From contig CAVOXA010000001.1 of the NCBI GenBank assembly GCA_963700285.1, forward strand, positions 320,001-384,000: 64,000 nucleotides of DNA. The letters run 5' to 3'. The stretch comes from an uncultured Chloroflexia bacterium. GTDB taxonomy: Bacteria; Chloroflexota; Anaerolineae; JAAYZQ01. The notes below the pieces were generated by a model. The model saw only the letters and a list, made by a program, of their open reading frames with translations. It made no database searches and was not told where the DNA came from. A program made the position numbers and the translations under genes. Positions within the stretch are counted from its first letter, which is position 1; each line of letters begins with the position of its first letter. Shown piece by piece: positions 9,440 to 23,650 of the stretch.

Positions 9440-9898
9440 TCAGGTGGTCATCACAAAGACCGCGCCCGCCGCCTTTGGTTCAAAATCGACGGACCATCTT
9501 GTGTACTTGTCGAACCGGGCTCCATGCAGATCGGCTTCGTTCAAGTCTGCTTGCTGAAAATTGGCCCCCACGAGGTGGGCATCCTGCAGGTCAGCGCCGC
9601 GTAGGTCGGCCTGGACGAAATTGGCCTTGGCCAAGTTGGCCAGCCGCAGCTTGGCCCCCCTCAAACAGGCCCTGGACAGTTCGGCCTCCATGAGGGTAGC
9701 CCCCGAAAGATCCACGCCAGCAAGATCAGCAGCCGCCACGTTGGTATTGGTCAGATCCGCATCGCGCAGGTCGGCCCCGCTCAGATCTGCCTTGTAGAGA
9801 CCCAAACCAGACAGGTCTTGGCCATGCAAGTCCAGGCGCTCACCCCGCGCGCGAGCCAGCGCAGCCAGGTCCCTAACATCTGCTACCGTCAATTTCAT
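9440..9898 (-). CDS. Pentapeptide repeat protein
   Basis: Repeated A(D/N)LxG units (ADLSGADLRDADLTN...); GGAGG RBS before ATG 9898. Confidence 0.85.
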   Translation of the reverse strand: MKLTVADVRDLAALARARGERLDLHGQDLSGLGLYKADLSGADLRDADLTNTNVAAADLAGVDLSGATLMEAELSRACLRGAKLRLANLAKANFVQADLRGADLQDAHLVGANFQQADLNEADLHGARFDKYTRWSVDFEPKAAGAVFVMTT

Positions 9899-10064: not shown

Positions 10065-10093
10065 TTGACAGGATCTTGCATCTGTGTTATGAT
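10065..10093 (+). promoter_or_regulatory. Sigma70 promoter of the aromatic biosynthesis operon
   Basis: TTGACA (10065-10070)-N17-TATGAT (10088-10093) with extended -10 TG. Confidence 0.75.
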
Positions 10094-10186
10094 TGTGCAA
10101 CTTCTGGTAGGGATGGAAGGATGGTTCATCGAGCGCTGGACAGAAACCGGATAGATGATTCGTCACTGGCTGTTGGCTGGGGCGAG

Positions 10187-10303
10187 ATGCAGGGTCTTTC
10201 CAAGAGCCTTGGGGTTTGTGACTGGTATTTTGGCTACTTTTATTTTACCGGTGTGTACGCACCGGTCGGTTGCCCTGCGCCAGGGGGGTCTTGCCAGGAG
10301 TAG
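10187..10303 (+). CDS. Putative aromatic amino acid attenuator leader peptide (38 aa, WYFGYFYF)
   Basis: MQGLSKSLGVCDWYFGYFYFTGVYAPVGCPAPGGSCQE*; 7 of 8 codons at 10223-10246 are Trp/Tyr/Phe; lies between the promoter and a terminator. Confidence 0.8.
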   Translation: MQGLSKSLGVCDWYFGYFYFTGVYAPVGCPAPGGSCQE

Positions 10304-10325
10304 ATTCGAAGCAAGAAGAACCTTA

Positions 10326-10365
10326 AACGAGCGTGGTGTAACCGGCACCACGCTCGTTCTTTATT
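10326..10365 (+). terminator. Attenuator terminator upstream of aroH
   Basis: Perfect 13-bp stem AACGAGCGTGGTG/CACCACGCTCGTT, 7-nt loop, CTTTATT tail. Confidence 0.8.
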
Positions 10366-10380
10366 GCCTGGGAGTATGCC

Positions 10381-10773
10381 ATGTCCCATGATGGAAGGTG
10401 TGCAGTACAATGTCGAGGCATACGTGGCGCGATCACGGTCGAGCATGATTCAGCCACGGCGATCCTGGAGGCAACGCGCGAACTACTGGGCCGTATCGTC
10501 GACGCAAACGGGGTAGTTGTCGAGGATCTGGCCAGCGCCATCTTTACTGTCACACCAGACCTGACCGCTGCGTACCCGGCAGCGGCGGCCCGAGATCTGG
10601 GCTGGCAGCACGTGGCACTGCTGGATGCTCAGGAGATCCCGGTACCGGGCAGCCTACCTCGTTGTGTTCGTGTACTGCTTCATTGGAATACCGGCACACC
10701 GCAGGCAGAGATCTGCCACGTGTACCTCCGGGGTGCGGCCTCACTACGGCCAGACCTAACGAGCAGGAAGTGA
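10381..10773 (+). CDS. aroH: Chorismate mutase, AroH class
   Basis: [37 protein letters not shown]. Confidence 0.95.
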
Positions 10774-10819: not shown

Positions 10820-11659
10820 ATGACCACAGTCGCATTCCAAGGGGTACGAGGGGCCTATTCCGAGGAAGCAACCTTTCAGTTCTTTGGCCCGGACGTCGAA
10901 ACGCTGCCATGCCAGAGTTTCGAGGGCATCTTTGAGGCGGTCGAGTCTCGGGCGGCCGACTATGGCGTGCAGCCGGTAGAGAACTCGACGGCCGGATCGA
11001 TCAATCGTGCCTATGATCTGTTGCAGTCTCACGATCTCCGGGTCTGGGGGGAGGTCATTCTTAGGATCCAGCATGCATTATTGGCGCCGAAGGGGATGGC
11101 GTTGGGTGATGTCGTTCGGGTACGTTCTCAGCCCGAGGCCCTGGCCCAGTGCAAGCGCTACCTGAGCAATCACGGCTGGACCCCCGAAGCCACCTACGAT
11201 ACAGCGGGCAGCGCCCGAGACCTGGCTGCCAAGGCTGAGCCCGGGGTGGCGGCCATTGCCAGCCGGCTGGCGGGCCAGCTCTATGGCCTCGAGGAGCTGG
11301 ACTATGGCATCGAGGACTCGCCAAACAACTACACGCGCTTTTTCGTCCTCAGCATCAACGATGCACCGCGGGCACAGCGCAGCAAGACCTCGCTGGTCTT
11401 TGCCTCACGCCATCAACCCGGTGCTCTGTACGAGTGTATCGGTGAATTCTCCAAGCGACACGTTAACTTGAGCAAGCTCGAGTCGCGTCCGCGGCCGAAT
11501 CGGCCGTGGCAATACAGCTACTACCTGGACTTTGATGGCCACTGTCAGGATCCAGAGTGCGAAGCCGCGCTAATGGGGCTGCTGCGTCGCTCTTCGTTCG
11601 TCAAGTTGCTGGGTTCGTATCCTGCGGCGACGACCCCTACGCTTGACGAGACGGACTGA
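10820..11659 (+). CDS. pheA: Prephenate dehydratase
   Basis: [16 protein letters not shown] domain with ESRP. Confidence 0.95.
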
Positions 11660-11691
11660 TGCCCGGAGCAGCGATAGTTGGAGGGAAGGCT

Positions 11692-12705
11692 ATGATCGTC
11701 ATTATGAAGCAAGGAGCAACCCGGGCTCAGGTGGTCAATGTCACGGCCCGTATTGAGCAGCTTGGCTGTACGGCGCACATCTCGGAGGGAGAGGAGCGCA
11801 CCATCATTGGCATCATCGGCAATGGGCGCCCGATAGACCGGGGAGCCGTTGAGCGGATGGACGGGGTCGAACAAACGGTACAGGTGCTGCGACCTTTCAA
11901 ACTGGCCAGCCGGGATTTTCACCCGCAGGACACTGTTGTTCCCATCAACGGAGTATCCGTCGGCGCCAAGAACTTGGTGGTCATAGCTGGCCCGTGTGCG
12001 GTCGAGGGGCGCTCGGAACTGATGGAGGCCGCGCAACTGGTCAAGGACGCCGGTGCCCAAATGCTGCGCGGTGGCGCCTTCAAGCCACGTACTTCGCCCT
12101 ATAGCTTTCAGGGAATGGGGGAAGAGGGACTGCGCATTCTAGCCGATGCTCGCCGGGAGACAGGGCTGCCCATCGTGACCGAGGTCATGGCCCCGGAGCA
12201 GGTGCCTTTGGTGACGACCTATGCCGATGTCCTGCAGATCGGGGCCCGAAACATGCAGAACTATGCCCTGTTGCACGCTGTAGGCGAGGCGCAGCGGCCT
12301 GTTCTGCTGAAGCGGGGAATGATGTCTACCATCGAAGAACTGCTGATGTCGGCTGAATACATCCTGTCCCATGGCAACAACCGGGTGATGCTGTGCGAGC
12401 GTGGGATCCGTACTTTTGAACAATACACGCGGAACACGCTTGACATCAATGCCATCCCGCTGCTCAAGCAGCTCAGCCATCTACCCGTCATCGTAGATCC
12501 AAGCCACGGAACCGGCAAGTGGGAACTGGTGGAGGCTGTCTCCAAGGCAGCCGTGGCAGCCGGGGCGGATGGGCTGATCATCGAGGTCCACCCACACCCC
12601 AGCCAGGCCATGTCCGATGGAGCCCAGTCCCTCAAGCCAGAGACCTTTGCCCGGCTGATGGACGATCTTGGCGCCATCGCTCGCGCTGTGGGTCGGGAGT
12701 TTTGA
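11692..12705 (+). CDS. aroF: DAHP synthase (type I-beta, N-terminal regulatory domain)
   Basis: [32 protein letters not shown]. Confidence 0.95.
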
Positions 12706-13619
12706 TGATGGCGCAACTGGAACAGGAACGTTCCCCAGTCGACCAGTATCCGCTGACTGAAGGCCGGCTACAGCATGCCCAGGTCACCATCGTGGGTTTG
12801 GGTCTGATGGGCGGCTCACTGGCTGGCGCGCTACGGGGCAAATGCCGGGCTGTTGTCGGGATGGCCCGTCGCGCCGAGGTGCTTGAAACTGCGCTGGCCC
12901 AGAACCTCATCGATTGGGGCACGGCCGACTTGGCGGAGGGTTTGCGCCAGGCGGACGTTGTTGTTCTGGCAACACCGGTGCGCGTCATTCTTCGTCAGTT
13001 GGCCGAGCTTTCACCTCTCTTGCCCCGGGGCTGCCTGTTGTTGGATCTGGGCAGCACAAAGGCCGAGATCGTCGCCGAGATGGCGAGACTACCGGAGCAT
13101 ATCCAGCCCTTGGGTGGACACCCGATGTGCGGTAAGGAGGTGTCAGGGATCGAGGTGGCCGATCCGGCTCTCTATCAGGGCACTACCTTTATCCTGTGTC
13201 CGTTGCCGCGCACCTCCGGTTGGGCGCTGAACCTGGGCTGCCAACTGGTCGAGGCCGTCGGTGCCCAGGCACTGGTGCTAGAAGCGGAGCGCCAAGACTC
13301 CCTCGTCGCCACTCTGAGCCACCTGCCCTACATGTTGGCCTGCGCGCTGGTTGGCACCGCAGATACCCTGACCTCTCCTGATCCGGCAGCTTGGGAGATC
13401 GTAGCTGGAGGCTATCGCGATACGTCGCGTGTGGCGGGCAGCGACGTGAAGATGATGGTCGATATCCTGATGACCAACCGAGAAGAAGTCGTGCGTTCGG
13501 TAGAAGCCTGCCAGGCCCAGCTCGGCCGCCTGGCGACTCTTGTACAAGCGGGCGCAGAGGATGAACTGCAAGCTACGCTGAGCGCCATTCGTGAAGAGAG
13601 GAGGCGAATGTACCCGTGA
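12705..13619 (+). CDS. tyrA: Prephenate/arogenate dehydrogenase
   Basis: GLGLMGGS, DLGSTK, GHPMCG, SHLP; overlaps the aroF stop (TGATG). Confidence 0.9.
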   Translation: MMAQLEQERSPVDQYPLTEGRLQHAQVTIVGLGLMGGSLAGALRGKCRAVVGMARRAEVLETALAQNLIDWGTADLAEGLRQADVVVLATPVRVILRQLAELSPLLPRGCLLLDLGSTKAEIVAEMARLPEHIQPLGGHPMCGKEVSGIEVADPALYQGTTFILCPLPRTSGWALNLGCQLVEAVGAQALVLEAERQDSLVATLSHLPYMLACALVGTADTLTSPDPAAWEIVAGGYRDTSRVAGSDVKMMVDILMTNREEVVRSVEACQAQLGRLATLVQAGAEDELQATLSAIREERRRMYP

Positions 13620-14959
13620 GCCGGCTCTGCGTGCAAGGCGCCGCGCCTCTGTGTGGGCGCATCCAGGTCCCAGGCGACAAGTCAGTCTCGCATCGCTCAC
13701 TGTTGTTGGGTTCCCTTGCAGAGGGGAAAAGCCGCGTGGAACGTTTTTTACCTGCTGCCGATTGCCGCGCTACGCTGAGTGCCGTGCGCGCGTTGGGTGT
13801 GGAGGTCGAGGAGCTGGGTCCATCGACGCTGATTCTCAGGGGCCGGGGACTGCGAGGCTTGCAGGAACCGGATGATGTCGTAGATTGCAGCCGCTCGGGT
13901 ACGACGATGCGGCTGCTGGCTGGAATCCTCGCCGGCCAGCCCTTCTTAACTGTTCTCTCAGGTGATGTCCAACTGAGGCGGCGGCCCATGGGGCGCATTG
14001 CAGAACCGTTGCGGCGCATGGGTGCGACGGTCCTGGGCCGGGACGGTGACCGCCTGCCGCCCCTGGCCATTCAGGGAGGTTCCCTTCAGGGCCTGGACTA
14101 TACGCTTCCAGTGGCCAGTGCTCAAGTCAAGAGTGCTCTATTGCTGGCCGGCCTGTACGCCGGAGGGCCCACGAGCCTGTGCGTGCCCGGGCCTGCGCGG
14201 GATCACACGGAACGGATGCTGGTGGCGATGGGAGCCAGGTTGGAGACTGAAGACTGGGGGTTGGCTGCTGGTGGACAGCGTTTACGGCTTGAGCCTGGCC
14301 ATTTCTTGCAAGCACTGGACCTTGCTGTGCCAGGGGATTTTTCGTCGGCGGCCTATTTCCTGGTAGCAGCAAGTCTTGTGCCCGGCTCGGAGGTCCTGAT
14401 CGAGGGCGTGGGTGTGAATCCCACCCGTACCGGACTGCTGGATGTGCTGCAGGCCATGGGCGCCGACGTCGTGCTGGAAGACACACGGATGGTGGGCGGC
14501 GAGCCTGTGGCGGATCTGGCGGTGCGCGCTTCGGACCTGGTCGCCACGGAGGTGAGCGGTCAGCTGGTGGTGCGGGCCATCGACGAGTTTCCTGTCCTGG
14601 CCGTAGCTGCCACCCAGGCCCGGGGAGAAACGGTGGTGCGTGACGCGGCCGAGCTGCGAGTGAAAGAGACCGACCGGATTGCTACCACGGTGCAGGAATT
14701 GCGCCGGCTGGGAGCCGAGATCGAGGCTCAGCCAGATGGTTTTGTCGTTCATGGTCCAACACCTCTGCGGAGCTCTGATCTCGCCGAAGGACAAGGATCC
14801 ATGGTTTGCAGCCATGGTGACCATCGTCTGGCGATGGCCCTGACCGTGGCCGGGTTGATTGCCAGGGGTGAGACCTGCGTACAGGACACGGACTGTATTG
14901 CCGACTCTTTCCCCGGCTTTGCGGCAGCGTTGGCAAGGCTGGGGGGAAACTTGCGATGA
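13616..14959 (+). CDS. aroA: EPSP synthase
   Basis: PGDKSVSHR, SGTTMRL, SAQVKS, RDHTE, KETDR, GDHR. Confidence 0.95.
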   Translation: MSRLCVQGAAPLCGRIQVPGDKSVSHRSLLLGSLAEGKSRVERFLPAADCRATLSAVRALGVEVEELGPSTLILRGRGLRGLQEPDDVVDCSRSGTTMRLLAGILAGQPFLTVLSGDVQLRRRPMGRIAEPLRRMGATVLGRDGDRLPPLAIQGGSLQGLDYTLPVASAQVKSALLLAGLYAGGPTSLCVPGPARDHTERMLVAMGARLETEDWGLAAGGQRLRLEPGHFLQALDLAVPGDFSSAAYFLVAASLVPGSEVLIEGVGVNPTRTGLLDVLQAMGADVVLEDTRMVGGEPVADLAVRASDLVATEVSGQLVVRAIDEFPVLAVAATQARGETVVRDAAELRVKETDRIATTVQELRRLGAEIEAQPDGFVVHGPTPLRSSDLAEGQGSMVCSHGDHRLAMALTVAGLIARGETCVQDTDCIADSFPGFAAALARLGGNLR

Positions 14960-15906
14960 CCGCCACTCCCGCGCAGCTTGTGACCGGCCCAGCCCCAGGG
15001 GTTGAGGACTCAATCTTTCGGGTTGGACTGGTGGGCTGGCCGGTAGAACACAGCGTTTCGCCGGCCATGCACAACGCTGCCTTTGATGCGCTGGATCTCA
15101 ACTGGCGCTATTTTCCTCTACCAACACCTCCCGACAAGGTGGAAGTTACCCTGGCCCAACTTCGTGAGCATGGGTACCGGGGAGCCAACGTCACCCTGCC
15201 CCACAAGCGGACCGTCATGCCCTACTTGGACGAACTCACGGATGCGGCGCGTGCCATTGGCGCAGTGAATACCATCCTTGCTGATGGCGCGCTGTTGGTC
15301 GGTCACAACACGGACGGGGATGGCTTCTTGATCGCGCTGAGGGCGGCGGGTTTTGATCCTGCTGGCCAGCGGGCACTGGTGTTGGGCGCTGGCGGTGGGG
15401 CACGGTCCGTGATCTATGCCCTGGCTCAAGCTGGTTGTTCGGTCACCCTCCACAACCGGACAGTGCAGCGGGCTACAAGTCTTGTGCAGGACATGCAGGC
15501 CGCGTGCCTCCAGCCAGCAGGCTCCTGGCTAACGCAGGCGACTAGCTTACAGGATCTGGATCTGGATGCCTACAGCCTATTGGTCAATACAACCTCGGTG
15601 GGGATGTGGCCCAACGTGGACGCCTCTCCGTGGCCGGAGGCTCCGGCAATGCCGTCGCATTGGACGGTCTTTGACCTGGTTTATAACCCTGAGGAAACCT
15701 GCCTTCTATCCGGGGCGCGCGCTGCTGGAGCCATGCCGGTCAGGGGCCTGGGCATGCTCGTACACCAGGGCGCCCTGGCCTTTGAGTTGTGGACAGGGCA
15801 AACGGCGCCGGTGGAAGTCATGTATACTGCTGCCAGGGAGGCACTGGGGCCAACGGGCAGGCGACCGGCAGTGGGCAGCCCTTGGGTGTTGGCTAGCGAA
15901 CACTGA
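14956..15906 (+). CDS. aroE: Shikimate dehydrogenase
   Basis: HSVSP, NVTLPHK, GAVNT, NTD, GAGGGAR. Confidence 0.95.
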   Translation: MTATPAQLVTGPAPGVEDSIFRVGLVGWPVEHSVSPAMHNAAFDALDLNWRYFPLPTPPDKVEVTLAQLREHGYRGANVTLPHKRTVMPYLDELTDAARAIGAVNTILADGALLVGHNTDGDGFLIALRAAGFDPAGQRALVLGAGGGARSVIYALAQAGCSVTLHNRTVQRATSLVQDMQAACLQPAGSWLTQATSLQDLDLDAYSLLVNTTSVGMWPNVDASPWPEAPAMPSHWTVFDLVYNPEETCLLSGARAAGAMPVRGLGMLVHQGALAFELWTGQTAPVEVMYTAAREALGPTGRRPAVGSPWVLASEH

Positions 15907-15958: not shown

Positions 15959-17125
15959 ATGTTGCGCTTTTTGACTGCTGGCGAGTCCCATGGCCCGGGT
16001 CTGACGGCAATCCTGGAAGGCTTGCCCGCGGGCATATGCCTGCGAGAAGATGACATAAACGTCCAGTTGGGCAAGAGACAGAAGGGATTTGGCAGCGGTG
16101 GCCGGATGCGGATCGAGCAGGATCAGATCCGTTTCACCGGCGGCTTGTTGGGCGGCAAGACCACGGGGGCCCCGCTGGCCATGCAATTCGAGAACAAAGA
16201 CTGGGCCAACTGGCGCGAACGCGATATCTCACCCATGACCATCCCCCGGCCGGGTCACGCCGACCTGACGGGGGCGATCAAGTATGGCTATCGGGACCTG
16301 CGGCTGGCATTGGAGCGGGCCAGCGCCCGGGAGACGGCTGCCCGCGTGGCGGTCGGCGCGGTCTGCCAGCAACTGCTGGCAGAGGTCGGCATCATCGTCG
16401 GCAGTTATGTCGTGCGGATTGGCAGCGCCTCGGCGGCGCTTCCTGAGGAACTGAGCTACACCGAGCGGTTCGCCCAGGCTGAGGAAAGCAACGTGCGTTG
16501 TCCGGATCCGGTTGCCGGGGAGGCCATGTACGCCTGCATCCGCGAGGCAATGGCCGCCAAAGATACCCTGGGCGGTGTATTTGAGGTCGTCGCACTTGGG
16601 CTGCCACCCGGGTTGGGCAGCCACGTCCACTGGGACCGACGGCTCGATGCCCGCTTGATGGGGGCTGTGGGTTCCATCCAGGCCGTCAAGGGCGTGGAGA
16701 TCGGCCCCGCGTTTGAGAATGCGGCCAAACGTGGTACAGAGGTGCACGACGAGATCCTGGAGGAAGAGGAACTGCTTGTCCGGCCGACCAACCGCGCCGG
16801 CGGTTTTGAAGGCGGTATCACTACCGGGCAGCCGGTGGTCGTGCGGGCGGCGATGAAACCTATCTCAACGACGCTGACTCCTCTGCGGTCGGTCGATCTG
16901 GCCACCGGCCAGCCGGCTGCGACACGCTATGAACGGTCGGATACCTGTGCCGTGCCTCGCGCAGCCGTCGTGGGTGAGGCGATGGTCGCGTTTGTCCTGG
17001 CCGATGCCCTTCTGGACAAATTGGGGGGAGACAGCCTGGCTGAGATGCGACCCCGTTTCACCGCTCTCCGGCGCGGTACCCTCCGAGATCTGGAGATGGA
17101 CAATGTATCCTGGCGATTCTCCTAG
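15959..17125 (+). CDS. aroC: Chorismate synthase
   Basis: LTAGESHG, PRPGHAD, ERASARET, ERSD; GGAGG RBS. Confidence 0.95.
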   Translation: MLRFLTAGESHGPGLTAILEGLPAGICLREDDINVQLGKRQKGFGSGGRMRIEQDQIRFTGGLLGGKTTGAPLAMQFENKDWANWRERDISPMTIPRPGHADLTGAIKYGYRDLRLALERASARETAARVAVGAVCQQLLAEVGIIVGSYVVRIGSASAALPEELSYTERFAQAEESNVRCPDPVAGEAMYACIREAMAAKDTLGGVFEVVALGLPPGLGSHVHWDRRLDARLMGAVGSIQAVKGVEIGPAFENAAKRGTEVHDEILEEEELLVRPTNRAGGFEGGITTGQPVVVRAAMKPISTTLTPLRSVDLATGQPAATRYERSDTCAVPRAAVVGEAMVAFVLADALLDKLGGDSLAEMRPRFTALRRGTLRDLEMDNVSWRFS

Positions 17126-18704
17126 ACTGGGAACCAAGAACCTGATCCTCACCGGTTTCATGGGCACCGGCAAGACGGCTGTGGGACAGGATTTGGCCCG
17201 CCGCCTGGGCAGAGAGTTCCTGGATATGGATGCCCTCATCGCAGATCGAGAGGGCATGAGCGTGGCCGAAATCTTTGGCCGAAGGGGCGAGGAGCGCTTC
17301 CGCCTCCTGGAGGTCGAGCTCTGCCGGGAGCTGGCTGCCAAACAGAATCTCGTGATCGCCAGCGGGGGTGGAGCACTGTTACCGGAGGCTAACGCGGAAA
17401 TCTTGAGCGCCAGCGGTCCGATTGTGTGCCTCAGCGCCTCGCCAGACGAGATCCTGCGCAGGCTGGAGGGCGTCCGGGACCGGCCCCTGCTCGAAGCTCC
17501 TGACCGGGAGGCCCGCATCGCCGCACTGCTGATGCAGCGGGAGGAGGCCTACGAGCGTATCCCGTTGCAGATTGATACCACGGGACGGACAGTCGCCCAG
17601 GTTGCCGATCAGGTCTTGGCCCTGGCGGGTACCGCTTCGTTCCAGCGCATACCTGTGAGCCATCCAGGCGGCGAATATCCGATCTATCTGGGTGGAGGCC
17701 TGCTGGCCCAGGCTGGAGACCTATTACGAACACGGGACGTAGGCGACCAGATTGTGCTGGTTTCCACGCCCCCTGTGGGCGAGCGCTACGCTGCGACGGT
17801 CACCGGTAGTTTGGAGCGCGCAGGTTACCGCGTGGCCACCAGTACCGTGCCAGATGGTGAGGTTCACAAGACGCTGGAAACGGTGCGGGTGCTCTACGAT
17901 ACTTTTATCGAGGCCGGGCTGGACCGGCGCGGGGCGTTGCTGGCCCTGGGTGGGGGAGTCGTAGGCGACATGGCGGGTTTTGCTGCGGCCACCTACCTTC
18001 GGGGCGTAGCCTTGGTTCAGTGCCCCACCAGCTTGTTGTCGATGGTGGACAGTAGTATCGGTGGCAAGGTGGCTGTGGATCACCCGCGGGGTAAGAACCT
18101 GATCGGTGCCTTCAAACAGCCCGAGTTGGTGATTATTGATCCCGAGACGCTGTCCACCCTTCCTGCCAGAGAGGTTGCCAGTGGCCTGGCCGAGGTTGTG
18201 AAGACGGGCCTAATTGGTGATCCTGATTTGTTTGAACAGATTGAGCGATACGGACCGGCCCCGATACGCTGGATCATCGAGCGGGCACTGCGGGTCAAGG
18301 CCGGTGTTGTTCAAGAGGATCCCTACGAGCGTGGCCGCCGGGCGGTGCTCAACTTGGGACACACCTTTGGTCACGCGTTGGAGCTGTTGAGCGACTACAG
18401 GCTGTCCCACGGCGAGGGGGTCAGTATTGGGCTGGTGGCGGCGTCGCGGCTGTCAGCCAGGCTGGGGCTTTGCAGCCCGGCTCTTGCCAGACGTGTTGAG
18501 CAAGTACTGGCGCGTCTGGACCTGCCAACGCGGTATCGGGGCCATGCACCAGAGCAGATCTGGCAGGCCATGGCCACGGACAAGAAGCGCAGGGGAAAGA
18601 CATTGCGCTTTATCCTGCTTCGAGCTGTAGGTGAGGTCCTGACGACTGACCAGGTGAGACAGGAGGACGTGTTGGCTGTTTTGGAGATGTTGAGCGAAGG
18701 CTGA
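17103..18704 (+). CDS. aroKB: Bifunctional shikimate kinase / 3-dehydroquinate synthase fusion
   Basis: N-terminal GFMGTGKT P-loop; C-terminal GGGVVGD, GGKVAV, LNLGHTFGHA, HGE. Confidence 0.92.
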   Translation: MYPGDSPRLGTKNLILTGFMGTGKTAVGQDLARRLGREFLDMDALIADREGMSVAEIFGRRGEERFRLLEVELCRELAAKQNLVIASGGGALLPEANAEILSASGPIVCLSASPDEILRRLEGVRDRPLLEAPDREARIAALLMQREEAYERIPLQIDTTGRTVAQVADQVLALAGTASFQRIPVSHPGGEYPIYLGGGLLAQAGDLLRTRDVGDQIVLVSTPPVGERYAATVTGSLERAGYRVATSTVPDGEVHKTLETVRVLYDTFIEAGLDRRGALLALGGGVVGDMAGFAAATYLRGVALVQCPTSLLSMVDSSIGGKVAVDHPRGKNLIGAFKQPELVIIDPETLSTLPAREVASGLAEVVKTGLIGDPDLFEQIERYGPAPIRWIIERALRVKAGVVQEDPYERGRRAVLNLGHTFGHALELLSDYRLSHGEGVSIGLVAASRLSARLGLCSPALARRVEQVLARLDLPTRYRGHAPEQIWQAMATDKKRRGKTLRFILLRAVGEVLTTDQVRQEDVLAVLEMLSEG

Positions 18705-18756: not shown

Positions 18757-19224
18757 ATGTGGCAGATACAGGTGATCCACGGACCCAATCTGAATCTCTT
18801 TGGGAGGCGCGAGCCTGCTATCTATGGCCGAGTGACACTGGCTGAGATCGATGAGCGATTGCAGGCCCAGGCTGCTGAGGCCGGGGTAGCGTTGCGGACT
18901 TTTCAATCCAACCATGAGGGAGCCATCGTCGATGTCGTGCAGCAAGCGGCCGGATGGGCTCATGGCCTGGTGATCAATCCCGGCGCCCATACCCACTACT
19001 CCTATGCCATTCGGGACGCCATCGCGGGTGTTGCTCTGCCGGCTGTGGAGGTGCACCTGTCCAACGTCCACGCCCGCGAACCCTTCCGGCGCACGTCGGT
19101 CATCGCGCCGGTGTGCGTGGGACAGATCTGCGGCTTTGGCTGGCGGAGCTATGGGCTGGGACTGGAAGCACTGCTAGACCACCTTCAAGATGCAATGGCC
19201 AGCGGCAAAGCAGAATCTCGGTGA
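18757..19224 (+). CDS. aroQ: Type II 3-dehydroquinate dehydratase
   Basis: HGPNLN, REP.IYG, QSNHEG, EVHLSN. Confidence 0.95.
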
Positions 19225-19273: not shown

Positions 19274-20692
19274 GTGGGAACACTGATCGTCAAGTTTGGC
19301 GGTACCTCGGTCGGTAGCGCCGAGGCCCTTACTCAGGCATCTGGTATTGTGCAGGCACAGGCCAGGGACTGGGATCGCCTGGTGGTGGTCGTCTCGGCCA
19401 TGAGAGGGGTGACAGATTCCTTGATCCGTGGCGCGCGTACGGCTGCTTCCGGCGACGATCAAGTCTATCGATCTACGGTCACGGATCTGCGCGTACTCCA
19501 CTATCGGGCCGTGGATGCCCTGCTCCTTTCTGACAGCGAACGCACCCAATTGCTGGCGAGGGTAGACGAGTACCTGGACGAGTTCTCCGCTTTTTGCCAC
19601 AGTGTCTACATTTTGGGCGAGGCCACGTCGCGGGCCATGGATGCAGTCACCTCGTTGGGTGAGCGGATTAACGCACGCCTCATGGCTGCTCTGCTGCGCC
19701 AGGGTGGCCTGCGCAGTGAGGCTGTGGATGCCACCGCGGTGATCGTCACCGACGATACCTTTCAAAACGCCGTCCCGCTGATGGAGGCCAGCCGAACTCA
19801 GGCTTCCGCACGTCTGGGCCCGTTGTTAGACGAGGGCGTGGTGCCGGTCGTGACCGGTTTTATCGGAGCCACGGAGAAGGGTATCACGACGACCTTGGGG
19901 CGGGGCGGCAGTGACTATAGCGCGGCGATTCTGGGGGCTTGCCTGGACGCCGATGAAGTCTGGACCTGGACAGACGTGGACGGTGTGATGACGGCTGACC
20001 CGAATATGGTAGCGGAGGCGCGGGTGATCCCTACGCTTTCGTACAGCGAGGTAGGCGAGCTTGCCTACTTTGGGGCCAAGGTGCTGCATCCGCGGACCAT
20101 CCGTCCCGTCGTGGAGCGTGGCATTCCACTCCGGGTCAAGAATACCTTCAATCCGGCCTCTCCTGGTACCCGCATTGTCCGCGAGCCGGAAAGCACGCCT
20201 GGGACCGTCAAGGCGGTGACTGCCATCAAAGGCCTGAGCCTGGTGACGGTGGAGGGTCGAGGTATGATGGGGGTACCGGGCATCGCTGCACGTACTTTTT
20301 CGGCGGTCGCCAGTCAGGGCACCAGCGTGTTGATGATCTCCCAGTCCTCGTCGGAGCAGTCTATCTCATTTGTCATCCCTATGGATGCGGTCGTACCAGT
20401 GGTCAAGGCCATTGAGCGAGAGATGGCCTTGGAGCTGGCCCGACGGGACATAGATCGTGTCTGGTCGCTGGACGATGTGGTGATCGTGAGCGCGGTGGGA
20501 ACGGGCATGCGTGGTACTCCAGGTGTTGCTCAGCGCATCTTTGGCGCACTGGGTGAGGGGGATATCAATGTGATCGCGATTGCCCAGGGTTCATCAGAAT
20601 GCAGCATATCGCTCGTGGTCAAAGCCGAGGCTGCGGTCGACGCCGTGCGAAGGATTCACGATCAGGTGCTGCTTATCAATGGAGTATCTTGA
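19274..20692 (+). CDS. lysC: Aspartate kinase (monofunctional, two ACT domains)
   Basis: KFGGTSV, VVSAM, TLGRGGSDYSA, DVDGV, SQSSSE; GTG start with AGGAGG RBS. Confidence 0.92.
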   Translation: MGTLIVKFGGTSVGSAEALTQASGIVQAQARDWDRLVVVVSAMRGVTDSLIRGARTAASGDDQVYRSTVTDLRVLHYRAVDALLLSDSERTQLLARVDEYLDEFSAFCHSVYILGEATSRAMDAVTSLGERINARLMAALLRQGGLRSEAVDATAVIVTDDTFQNAVPLMEASRTQASARLGPLLDEGVVPVVTGFIGATEKGITTTLGRGGSDYSAAILGACLDADEVWTWTDVDGVMTADPNMVAEARVIPTLSYSEVGELAYFGAKVLHPRTIRPVVERGIPLRVKNTFNPASPGTRIVREPESTPGTVKAVTAIKGLSLVTVEGRGMMGVPGIAARTFSAVASQGTSVLMISQSSSEQSISFVIPMDAVVPVVKAIEREMALELARRDIDRVWSLDDVVIVSAVGTGMRGTPGVAQRIFGALGEGDINVIAIAQGSSECSISLVVKAEAAVDAVRRIHDQVLLINGVS

Positions 20693-20715
20693 CTGATTCC
20701 GGGAGGTTACACTGG

Positions 20716-21849
20716 ATGAAGAACTATGGCTACGCATCCGTCCAGGAATTCCTCGACGATCGTATTGTCTATCGAAACCTGGTACCCTCTGATCCCCGGT
20801 TGCCACCGGTGTCAGAGGTGCGCCGGAAGATAGGGTTGCCACCTGGCCTGGTCCCGCGCAAAACTGCACCAGAGTACGCCCAGGTCATCGTCCATCTGCT
20901 CCAGCAGGCGCGGGCTCTCGATATGCCTGGCATCCCTATCCAGCGCCTGGTCTACGTAGGCGACACACCCATGAACGATGGAACGGCATTCACAAATATC
21001 AGTGATGCGGGAAACTGGCCGGGTCTGGCCTTTATTGGTTCTGATCGCGATGAACCGGCTCGCGTGGAACTGGTCGAACGTGAGAGGGGGATGCTCTACG
21101 TGGCGAACCGCTGGGGGGCGCTCTCGGACTTTCGGCAGTTCTGTCGCGACCGGAGCTTTCCGGTGGACGAGGGGACGGCCGTCATTGTTGACCTGGACAA
21201 GACGGCCGTGGGGGCGCGAGGACGCAACGATCATGTCATCGATCAAGCCCGTGTTGAGGCTGTGCGCCGGACGGTTGGCGATCTGTTGGGCGATGAGTTT
21301 GACCCGGAGAGCTTTCAGACAGCCTATGACTGCCTGAACCAACTCGAGTTCCACCCGTTCACCGCCGACAATCAAGACTATTTGGCCTACATCTGCCTGA
21401 TCTTGGGCAGTGGCCTGTATTCATTGGACGGCCTGGTGGCCGACGTGCGGGCGGATCGGGTGGCAGCCTTTCAACAGTTTATCGCTAAAGTGGACGATCA
21501 GGCTGGCGAGTTGCCTGCCAGTCTGCGGCAGATACACAGCGACATCCATGACCGTGTGTTGCAAGGCGATCCGACCCCTTTCAAGGCGTTTCGTTACACA
21601 GAGTATCTGGTCACAGTGGAAAAGATGGGTTGGTTGGCGGAAAGTGCAACGATTGATGCGTTGCTTGCGGACGAGCTTGTCATCACACAGGAGGTGCGAG
21701 AGACGGCACTGACCTGGCTTGGCCAAGGGGCATTGCTCTTTGGTCTCTCGGACAAACCTGATGAGGCATCCATCCCGACCAGTGACCTTGCCGCTCAAGG
21801 ATACCGGCCGATCCACCGAATGGATACTCGCGCTGTAGGAACTGTATGA
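20716..21849 (+). CDS. Hypothetical 377-aa protein, circularly permuted HAD-like
   Basis: YVGDTPMND (res 80-88) precedes VIVDLDKT (res 156-163); FGLSDKP near the C-terminus; GGGAGG RBS. Confidence 0.7.
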
Positions 21850-21934
21850 TGACCCAGGATGGGTGAAGAAGAGCAGGGCATGGCTTGCACCTCGGGAGGC
21901 CTGGCTTTCTTTGCCCGGTTTGGAGGTGGCGTTC

Positions 21935-23257
21935 ATGGGCTACAATAGCTGGCTCGAATGTGTCCGCGGCTGCGGCCGTCGATACTCCATCTATGATGTG
22001 GTCTATCGCTGCGAGGATTGCGGTGGCTTGTTGGATGTGGAGCACGATCTGGACGCACTCAAGGATCGCAGCGCCGCTGACTGGCGACAGCTTTTTGACC
22101 GCCGGATACGGACCAATGAGTGGCCCTACGGGAGTGGTGTATGGGGCAAGAAGGAGTGGGTCTGCCCCGAGGTGGCCAACGACAACGTCGTCTCGATGTA
22201 TGAGGGGCACACCAACTGTTTCTGGGCAGAGCGCCTTGGGAAGGAGATCGGCGTGTCCGACCTTTGGGTCAAGCTGTCGGGGAATAGCCACACCGGTTCC
22301 TTCAAAGACCTGGGGATGACGGTGTTGATCTCTGTAGTACGGCAGATGATGGCTGATGGAAAACCGATTCGCGCCGTCGCCTGTGCATCCACCGGTGATA
22401 CCTCGGCAGCGCTGGCAGCCTACGGCGCTGCTGCTGGCATCCCTACGATCGTGTTTCTGCCCCGTGGCAGAGTCTCTACCGCCCAGTTGGTACAGCCCAT
22501 CGCGCACGGCGCGCTGGTACTGGCGTTGGATACCGACTTTGATGGTTGCATGCGCATTGTGCGCGAGGTCACCGCAGATCAGACCATCTACCTGGCAAAC
22601 TCGATGAACTCGCTGCGGATGGAGGGACAAAAGACAGTCGGCATTGAGATAGCTCAGCAATTCGATTGGCAGGCTCCGGACTGGCTCATCATCCCAGCGG
22701 GCAATCTGGGCAACGTTAGCGCCCTGGGCAAGGGACTGCTGATGATGCGGGAATTGGGTCTGATAGATAGGCTGCCGCGCATTGCCTGCGCCCAGGCGGC
22801 CCACGCCAACCCCCTCTACCTCAGCTATCTCACGGGCTTTGAAGAGTACATGTCTGTGTCCGCGGCCGAGACCCTGGCCACCGCCATCCAGATCGGTGAG
22901 CCGGTGAGCTATGAGCGAGCTGTCAAGGTGCTGCAGGCCTTTGACGGCGTGGTCGAGCAGGCTACCGAAGATGAACTGGCCAATGCTGCTGCTGCTGCCG
23001 ACCGTGCGGGCCTGTATAGTTGTCCTCAAACCGGTGTGGCTCTGGCGGTACTGGATAAATTGATTGCTCGTGGAGAGATTCTGCCTGAACATCGCGTGGT
23101 TGTCATCTCTACTGCCCATGGCCTCAAGTTCACTCGCTTCAAGGTCGGATATCACGAACAAGCACAGGTGGAAGTCGTGGCCCAGCACGCCAATCCGCCG
23201 GTGGAGCTGCCGGCTGACACCAGATCTGTGCTCCGGGCCATCGAGCAGGCTCTTTGA
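21935..23257 (+). CDS. thrC: Threonine synthase
   Basis: [30 protein letters not shown]. Confidence 0.93.
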
Positions 23258-23402: not shown

Positions 23403-23431
23403 TTGACAAATACCGCGGACTGTGGTATAAG
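23403..23431 (+). promoter_or_regulatory. Sigma70 promoter of the ilv-leu operon
   Basis: TTGACA (23403-23408)-N17-TATAAG (23426-23431) with extended -10 TG. Confidence 0.75.
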
Positions 23432-23493
23432 AGCGCGATGTGAAGGTGACTGAGTCATGGCTCCAGTGGGCCGTGGCCGAAAGTGAGAGTGCA

Positions 23494-23598
23494 GTGCTCC
23501 AAGCCTTATACCTTGCCCAACTGGTCATCGTTATTCTGTTGTTGGTTGAGCTCCTTGGGATTAAGGAGCAATTGGCCGTTGGGAGGGTTTCTGCATAG
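23494..23598 (+). CDS. Putative Ile/Leu/Val attenuator leader peptide
   Basis: GTG start: MLQALYLAQLVIVILLLVELLGIKEQLAVGRVSA*; nine consecutive I/L/V codons at 23521-23547. In-frame GTGs at 23440, 23446 and 23473 are alternative starts. Confidence 0.78.
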   Translation: MLQALYLAQLVIVILLLVELLGIKEQLAVGRVSA

Positions 23599-23623
23599 CA
23601 GATACACACAGCAAACAGGCGAG

Positions 23624-23650
23624 GGCCTCCCACAAGGGAGGCCTTTTTTT
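23624..23650 (+). terminator. Attenuator intrinsic terminator upstream of ilvD
   Basis: GGCCTCCC-ACAA-GGGAGGCC followed by T7. Confidence 0.9.

Follow-up and report, generated by a model that had tools for sequence, protein, structure and literature searches.

In the E. coli pheL-pheA and trpL attenuators, a leader ORF carrying control codons precedes competing 1:2, 2:3 and 3:4 helices and an intrinsic terminator, and each of the two leaders senses one amino acid. Attenuators that read several amino acids are also established, as in thrL (Thr/Ile) and ilvL (Ile/Leu/Val), so OR-gate attenuation as such is not new. The element described here lies upstream of an aroH-led operon in the genome of an uncultured Chloroflexia bacterium (G000) and is predicted to read Tyr and Phe. 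It shares with pheL-pheA and trpL the leader ORF, the competing helices and the terminator, and, like thrL and ilvL, would act as an OR gate that takes several end products of one branched pathway as inputs, although the amino acids differ. It appears to work by the textbook mechanism of trpL and pheL, while forming an uncatalogued family outside their Rfam families (Phe_leader and Trp_leader). It differs from both in that the leader stop lies beyond segment 2, the 5' arm of the predicted antiterminator, and in its weak protector (1:2) helix in G000; unlike in trpL, nascent G000 RNA without a ribosome is computed to prefer the antiterminator over the protector.

The first-pass annotation of this DNA knew of no described example of a leader combining aromatic amino acids, but C. 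glutamicum provides a precedent. As described in the passages on it in PMC4046766 and PMC11802643, the aroR leader contains Phe-Tyr-Phe ahead of aroF, and the latter source, citing Neshat 2014, reports a response to Phe and not to Tyr supply despite the Tyr codon. Judged by these descriptions, the Chloroflexota leaders resemble aroR in placing mixed Phe/Tyr codons before shikimate-pathway genes and in their ribosome-mediated mode of attenuation, whereas aroR has three control codons (F-Y-F) with a reported Phe response only and the Chloroflexota leaders, in another phylum, have about seven, are Tyr-dominated, and are long frames placed ahead of aroH and the entire pathway. In Shewanella, too, a link to Tyr has been proposed for the attenuation of an aro gene: Table 3 of PMC2659441 lists an aroF 5'-UTR motif as an "attenuator sensing tyr-tRNA"; that entry is a prediction resting on a 1980 E. 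coli citation, and the Table 3 passage gives no codon run. In the literature searched, outside the surveys Vitreschak 2004 and Lopatovskaya 2010, we found no description of a Chloroflexota aromatic leader family and no demonstration of Tyr-codon attenuation; the relevant portions of PMC4833913, PMC3082878 and PMC3223726 contain nothing on such a family.

The leader and the operon it precedes

The window (the whole 64,000-nucleotide stretch that was analysed) contains the following features of the leader region and operon.

10065..10093, + strand: sigma-70-type promoter (TTGACA-17-TATGAT), from a motif scan; most homologous leaders are preceded by a similar TTGAC...TA---T site
10121..10303, + strand: 60-codon leader peptide gene, most likely starting at ATG 10121 (G001 comparison, anti-SD pairing)
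10223..10225, + strand: single Trp codon adjoining the Tyr/Phe run; can pair with 10262-10264 in the predicted 1:2 helix; optional in the family
10226..10246, + strand: Tyr/Phe control run Y-F-G-Y-F-Y-F, conserved in 153/171 loci
10247..10266, + strand: 8-bp hairpin following the run, a candidate for a pause hairpin (folding; identical in G001)
10263..10285, + strand: segment 2, 5' arm of the predicted antiterminator (folding, covariation)
10289..10316, + strand: inner hairpin that includes the leader stop codon and lies within the predicted antiterminator (folding)
10326..10365, + strand: predicted intrinsic terminator (stem 10326-10358) and T-rich tail; its 5' arm and loop form segment 3 (folding, covariation)
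10381..10773, + strand: aroH, chorismate mutase (TIGR01796, over cut-off)
10820..11659, + strand: pheA, prephenate dehydratase (family profile)
11659..12705, + strand: aroF, DAHP synthase (family profile)
12705..13619, + strand: tyrA, prephenate dehydrogenase (below family cut-offs, E 9e-57)
13616..14959, + strand: aroA, EPSP synthase (family profile)
14956..15906, + strand: aroE, shikimate dehydrogenase (family profile)
15959..17125, + strand: aroC, chorismate synthase (family profile)
17115..18704, + strand: aroK-aroB fusion (family profile)
18757..19224, + strand: aroQ, type II dehydroquinase, with which the conserved block ends (family profile)
19274..23257, + strand: lysC, a 378-aa gene and thrC (gaps 13-49 nt)

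The promoter claimed in the first-pass annotation is present, matching the consensus at 11 of 12 positions and ranking first among the 5 sites found in 8-24 kb, where shuffled sequences give 4.2 sites of any quality. The codons at 10223-10246 read W-Y-F-G-Y-F-Y-F, as had been noted, and the frame ends at TAG 10301-10303; shuffling the bases of the leader 5000 times never gave seven aromatic codons in eight. The 38-codon ORF previously assigned to this leader exists, but its start at ATG 10187 was dropped, as this position is AGG in G001 (a genome of the same genus, locus L002) and its pairing with a generic anti-SD motif is weaker (-4.7 kcal/mol, against -8.0 kcal/mol for the in-frame ATG 10121). 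Because ATG 10121 is retained in G001 and pairs more strongly, the leader, judged from this comparison, most likely consists of 60 codons with ATG 10187 as an internal codon. The leader peptide has no Pfam match.

A 13-codon ORF at 10113-10154 (W-F...W) overlaps the leader start. It was considered as a separate Trp sensor and set aside, since G001 has C-I where its first W and F stand in G000. The RNA runs X1 and X2 are available as assembled contigs that hold small shares only; X1 contains one exact 190-nt contig covering the leader only (10123-10312, depth 6), and X2 one exact pheA contig. Since these contigs show neither ends nor levels, we regard the leader contig as a weak hint and do not take them as proof of expression.

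Downstream of the leader, the gene order is aroH, pheA, aroF, tyrA, aroA, aroE, aroC, aroK-aroB, aroQ, and no gap exceeds 52 nt. As no strong terminator-like site was found between aroH and thrC, read-through into lysC-thrC, and hence their co-transcription, is possible in G000. The suggestion in the first-pass annotation that lysC-thrC may belong to the controlled unit did not hold up in relatives: in the sister genome G001 (L129 7900-9450) lysC and thrC are short fragments, with the gene between them kept at about 90% identity, and in the stretches fetched from G011, G057 and G163 neither gene follows the block, so lysC-thrC does not belong to the conserved part of the system. The 378-aa gene (20713-21849) has no NCBIfam or Pfam match. 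On the other side of the promoter lies a divergent pentapeptide-repeat gene (9440-9895, - strand; below family cut-offs), which is also found in G001.

The three RNA structures that had been pointed out from the sequence were all recovered. The terminator stem at 10326-10358 contains 13 Watson-Crick pairs and one G-U pair (-24.6 kcal/mol) and is followed by the T-rich tail; a hand check of the antiterminator pairing between 10265-10280 and 10331-10346 gave 15 of 16 positions, with a duplex of -24.2 kcal/mol over the region; and the hairpin at 10247-10266 has 8 bp and -12.2 kcal/mol. Using an assumed 15-nt ribosome footprint, we simulated folding of the G000 leader and observed antiterminator probabilities of 0.89-1.0 for A-sites at 10220-10250 and of 0.21 or less for A-sites from 10256 on. 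This model places the switch point just past the control run, with the Trp codon within the window, and agrees with the proposed geometry in which a stalled ribosome would leave the antiterminator arm free and a ribosome translating onward would cover it. In simulated RNA without a ribosome, a transcript ending at 10346 adopts the antiterminator fold with a probability of 0.975 (-50.3 kcal/mol vs -32.7 kcal/mol for the protector), while in the full-length RNA the terminator wins (-66.2 vs -53.6 kcal/mol). By these computations the protector helix is weak in G000 and loses to the antiterminator in nascent RNA.

Recurrence of the leader in relatives and the codons it carries

The first-pass annotation had suggested looking upstream of aroH in related genomes for conserved aromatic uORFs and covarying stems. 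Anaerolineae are among the named close relatives of G000, which puts this organism in Chloroflexota. We searched 61 relatives and 301 genomes of the class for aroH and fetched the upstream DNA of the top matches and of matches hand-picked across families, among the matches listed. A detector requiring 5 or more Tyr/Phe among 10 codons, a stop no more than 45 codons away and then a hairpin with a T-run found a leader and terminator before aroH at 118/131 loci (after removal of 8 duplicates and of 2 loci that were too short) and at 35/40 further loci. Together, 153/171 relatives' loci carry the Tyr/Phe leader and 18/171 have no detected leader; the same detector scored 6/10,602 control regions of the own genome. 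The leaders of the first set have a median length of 48 codons and end at most 250 nt from aroH in 117/118 cases, and the frame and codon run are kept despite a mean column identity of 42%. Among 57 loci, aroH is followed by pheA in 29 and by aroF in 26.

A covariance model of the leader matched 34/141 phylum genomes. Of the 26 matching loci examined, 19 are full Tyr/Phe leaders (16 outside the class), most of them before aroH or aroF, and 7 are terminator-only matches. The own genome contains no second copy at E below 0.01, and four family members without aroH gave weak partial matches only. Rfam gave 0 matches in the window, and the leaders of 5 loci gave none at E<=1; the T-box model RF00230 did not match at the leader in the window or at the 5 leader loci, with the trp leader of G001 as a positive control (98.5 bits). 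Two loci stand apart: L196 (G025) has a leader with F-F-Y-F-W-F-S-Y-F before a different first gene, which we take to be a class I-alpha DAHP synthase, and L216 (G015) has a similar terminator hairpin, no aromatic run, and a following gene that we presume to be hisS-like.

The RNA structures recur with the frame. Across the 118 leaders, pairing between the segment that follows the run and the terminator 5' arm and loop has a median of -19 kcal/mol, and this segment begins a median of 15 nt after the last control codon; the leader stop is 24-36 nt upstream of the terminator (10th-90th percentile). This antiterminator beats shuffles in 77/118 leaders and an upstream control segment in 107/118, the protector helix reaches a z below -1.64 in 48/118, and segment 2 ranks its own terminator in the top 5 of 118 in 40 cases, where about 5 are expected. 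Of the 81 leaders with typical spacing, 40 were aligned, and in this alignment we counted 34 two-sided compensatory changes in the antiterminator, 38 in the terminator and 53 in the protector; for each helix 0/500 shuffles gave a count as high and all slid controls were lower, although these controls overstate the support because the structures were drawn from the same sequences and kin are not independent.

The 150 codon clusters of the full set contain 545 Tyr, 491 Phe and 13 Trp codons; the 118 runs of the first set comprise 1041 codons, with 442 Tyr, 353 Phe and 12 Trp. Both synonymous codons of Tyr and of Phe are used (TTT 283, TAT 238, TAC 204, TTC 70), so the meaning of the codons is kept and not a base string. 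Tyr and Phe occur together in 145/150 runs; in the first set, 113 runs have both, 5 are Tyr-only and none is Phe-only, and conservation of the Tyr codons is as strong as that of the Phe codons. Other codons beginning with U are rare (TGC 7, TCG 7, TCT 4, TTG 2 of 1041). Read from these sequences, the conserved signal is Tyr plus Phe, with Trp optional.

The tryptophan codon and tryptophan synthesis

A Trp codon lies inside the run in 12/118 leaders of the first set (13/150 in the full set) and within -4 to +2 codons of it in 45/118. Inside runs, Trp (12) is more frequent than Cys (7), although Cys is a single step away from both Tyr and Phe, and 9/12 of the Trp codons inside runs have no partner in the 1:2 helix. 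Trp at -3/-4 ('W-R') was rejected as a control codon: it is paired in the 1:2 helix in 16/19 cases and is not linked to trpA (24/104 vs 5/46, p 0.12), and for both reasons we regard it as a by-product of RNA pairing.

We scored trpA in 155 genomes, 150 of them with a detected leader. A Trp codon inside the run occurs in 13/104 trpA-bearing and 0/46 trpA-lacking genomes, and one inside or adjacent in 32/104 and 3/46, where 'adjacent' was defined after the data had been seen and trpA absence may be false in incomplete genomes. The first set alone gave 10/52 vs 0/33 inside the run; the second set alone was not significant (inside 3/52 vs 0/13; inside or adjacent 12/52 vs 0/13, p 0.10). With one genome per family the median one-sided p values were 0.058 and 0.004, permutation within families gave p 0.68 and 0.23, and independent pairs on a tree of 120 aroH residues were too few and lent no support. 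The link between Trp codon and trpA across the family is thus suggestive and not phylogenetically proven.

G000 (89% complete) has no match to the trpE, chorismate-binding, trpA or IGPS (trpC) families, and its matches to trpD and trpB are below cut-off only. The flanks of the G001 trp operon map to one G000 contig (G000:C10 179012-197096), with unrelated genes and no N between them. As this syntenic site lies gap-free on one contig and holds other genes, the trp operon appears, from the sequence comparison, to have been lost recently from G000 and not merely left unassembled. Elsewhere on that contig, at about 762900-763160, a T-box-like sequence precedes a trpS-like gene and then a sub-cut-off trpB-like gene. 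In G001 the trp operon is preceded by its own T-box (L142 2814-3131, 98.5 bits). In G057 (L131 8516-11502) the aro operon continues immediately after aroE with a trpB-like PALP gene and trpA; the leader run of this operon is without Trp, and no T-box was found at gathering score. Since trpE/D/C/A are lacking at the syntenic site, the G000 Trp codon, which is kept in G001, likely serves no Trp synthesis and is probably a leftover from a Trp-making ancestor. Lying inside the predicted switching window, it could still act, and stalling at it would then induce a pathway that likely does not lead to Trp here.

Proposed mechanism and alternative readings

The control codons match end products of the operon, an intrinsic terminator precedes the first gene, and the antiterminator is computed to exclude the terminator and to be left open by a ribosome stalled at the control codons. 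Conservation, covariation and the modelled switch geometry agree with the earlier proposal of an attenuator ahead of the shikimate/Phe/Tyr operon, and we consider it very likely that the element is a functional attenuator. Its probable mode of action is that of a ribosome-coupled transcription attenuator that reads Tyr and Phe charging, gates aroH-aroQ and carries a leftover Trp codon. When Tyr and Phe are plentiful, the ribosome would cross segment 2 to the stop codon and cover that segment, the terminator would form, and the transcript would end near 10365. When Tyr or Phe is short, the ribosome would stall within 10226-10246, segment 2 (about 15-20 nt beyond the run) would capture segment 3, and the polymerase would read on. 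The signals sensed would be charged tRNA-Tyr and tRNA-Phe, and the operon gated would comprise the nine genes aroH-aroQ. Elsewhere in the family, Trp may be an optional extra input in some Trp-making lineages.

The three-way Trp/Tyr/Phe gate claimed in the first-pass annotation, by which Trp shortage would induce G000 as Tyr or Phe shortage does, is an unlikely selected function here. The position of TGG 10223 in the simulated switching window and its retention in G001 speak for such a gate, as do the excess of Trp over Cys inside runs, the mostly unpaired state of these Trp codons and the uneven distribution of Trp inside or next to the run between trpA-bearing and trpA-lacking genomes. However, the G000 signal is a single codon at the run edge that can pair in the 1:2 helix, in a genome with other genes where trpE/A/C/D would lie; Trp is inside the run in few leaders of the family; the G001 trp operon has its own T-box; the G057 run lacks Trp despite trpB-trpA in the same operon and no T-box; and the second set alone, the within-family test and the tree pairs gave no significant link. 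A sensor that is effectively Phe-only, like pheL or aroR, with Tyr codons as tolerated filler, is a very unlikely alternative. The lack of a Tyr response in aroR, as stated in the passage of PMC11802643, is its precedent; against it, Tyr codons outnumber Phe codons in the runs, Tyr-only runs occur without Phe-only counterparts, and tyrA belongs to the operon.

A further reading takes every control codon's initial U as the signal. A37 modification, by MiaA, is shared by the tRNAs that read codons beginning with U, and with the weak G000 protector of our model any upstream slowing could give read-through, so that the leader might report this modification or general translation speed; the rarity of other U-start codons in the runs and the match between codons and end products make this highly improbable. 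That the element is a T-box, another riboswitch or a constitutive terminator with a chance uORF is scarcely credible: T-boxes are used in this lineage, but Rfam found none in the window or at the 5 leader loci, and the frame and codon run persist in the diverged alignment. We therefore retain the attenuator that reads Tyr and Phe. A broader reading, which we hold tentatively and at somewhat below even chances, is that this Chloroflexota-wide family is re-tuned from genome to genome, with Tyr and Phe always read, Trp gained repeatedly and only in Trp-making lineages, where three-way OR gates would result, and a vestigial Trp codon in G000. On the aroH tree the Trp codon changes 10 or more times, in 11 families. 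If true, re-tuning would open the sensing of Tyr-tRNA by an attenuator to direct test and would show, as a natural experiment, how regulatory codons track metabolism. The Tyr-dominated and Tyr-only leaders make Tyr-codon attenuation testable. The family is missing from Rfam and could be modelled at once; in a large class whose members are mostly uncultured, it is the likely regulator of aromatic amino acid synthesis.

The window also contains a second putative leader-peptide attenuator, of the known Ile/Leu/Val type, at 23403-23650 before ilvD and an ilv-leu block. It comprises a promoter-like site, a 52-codon ORF from GTG 23440 (23440-23597) with the run L-V-I-V-I-L-L-L-V, a possible antiterminator and a predicted terminator of -25.8 kcal/mol.
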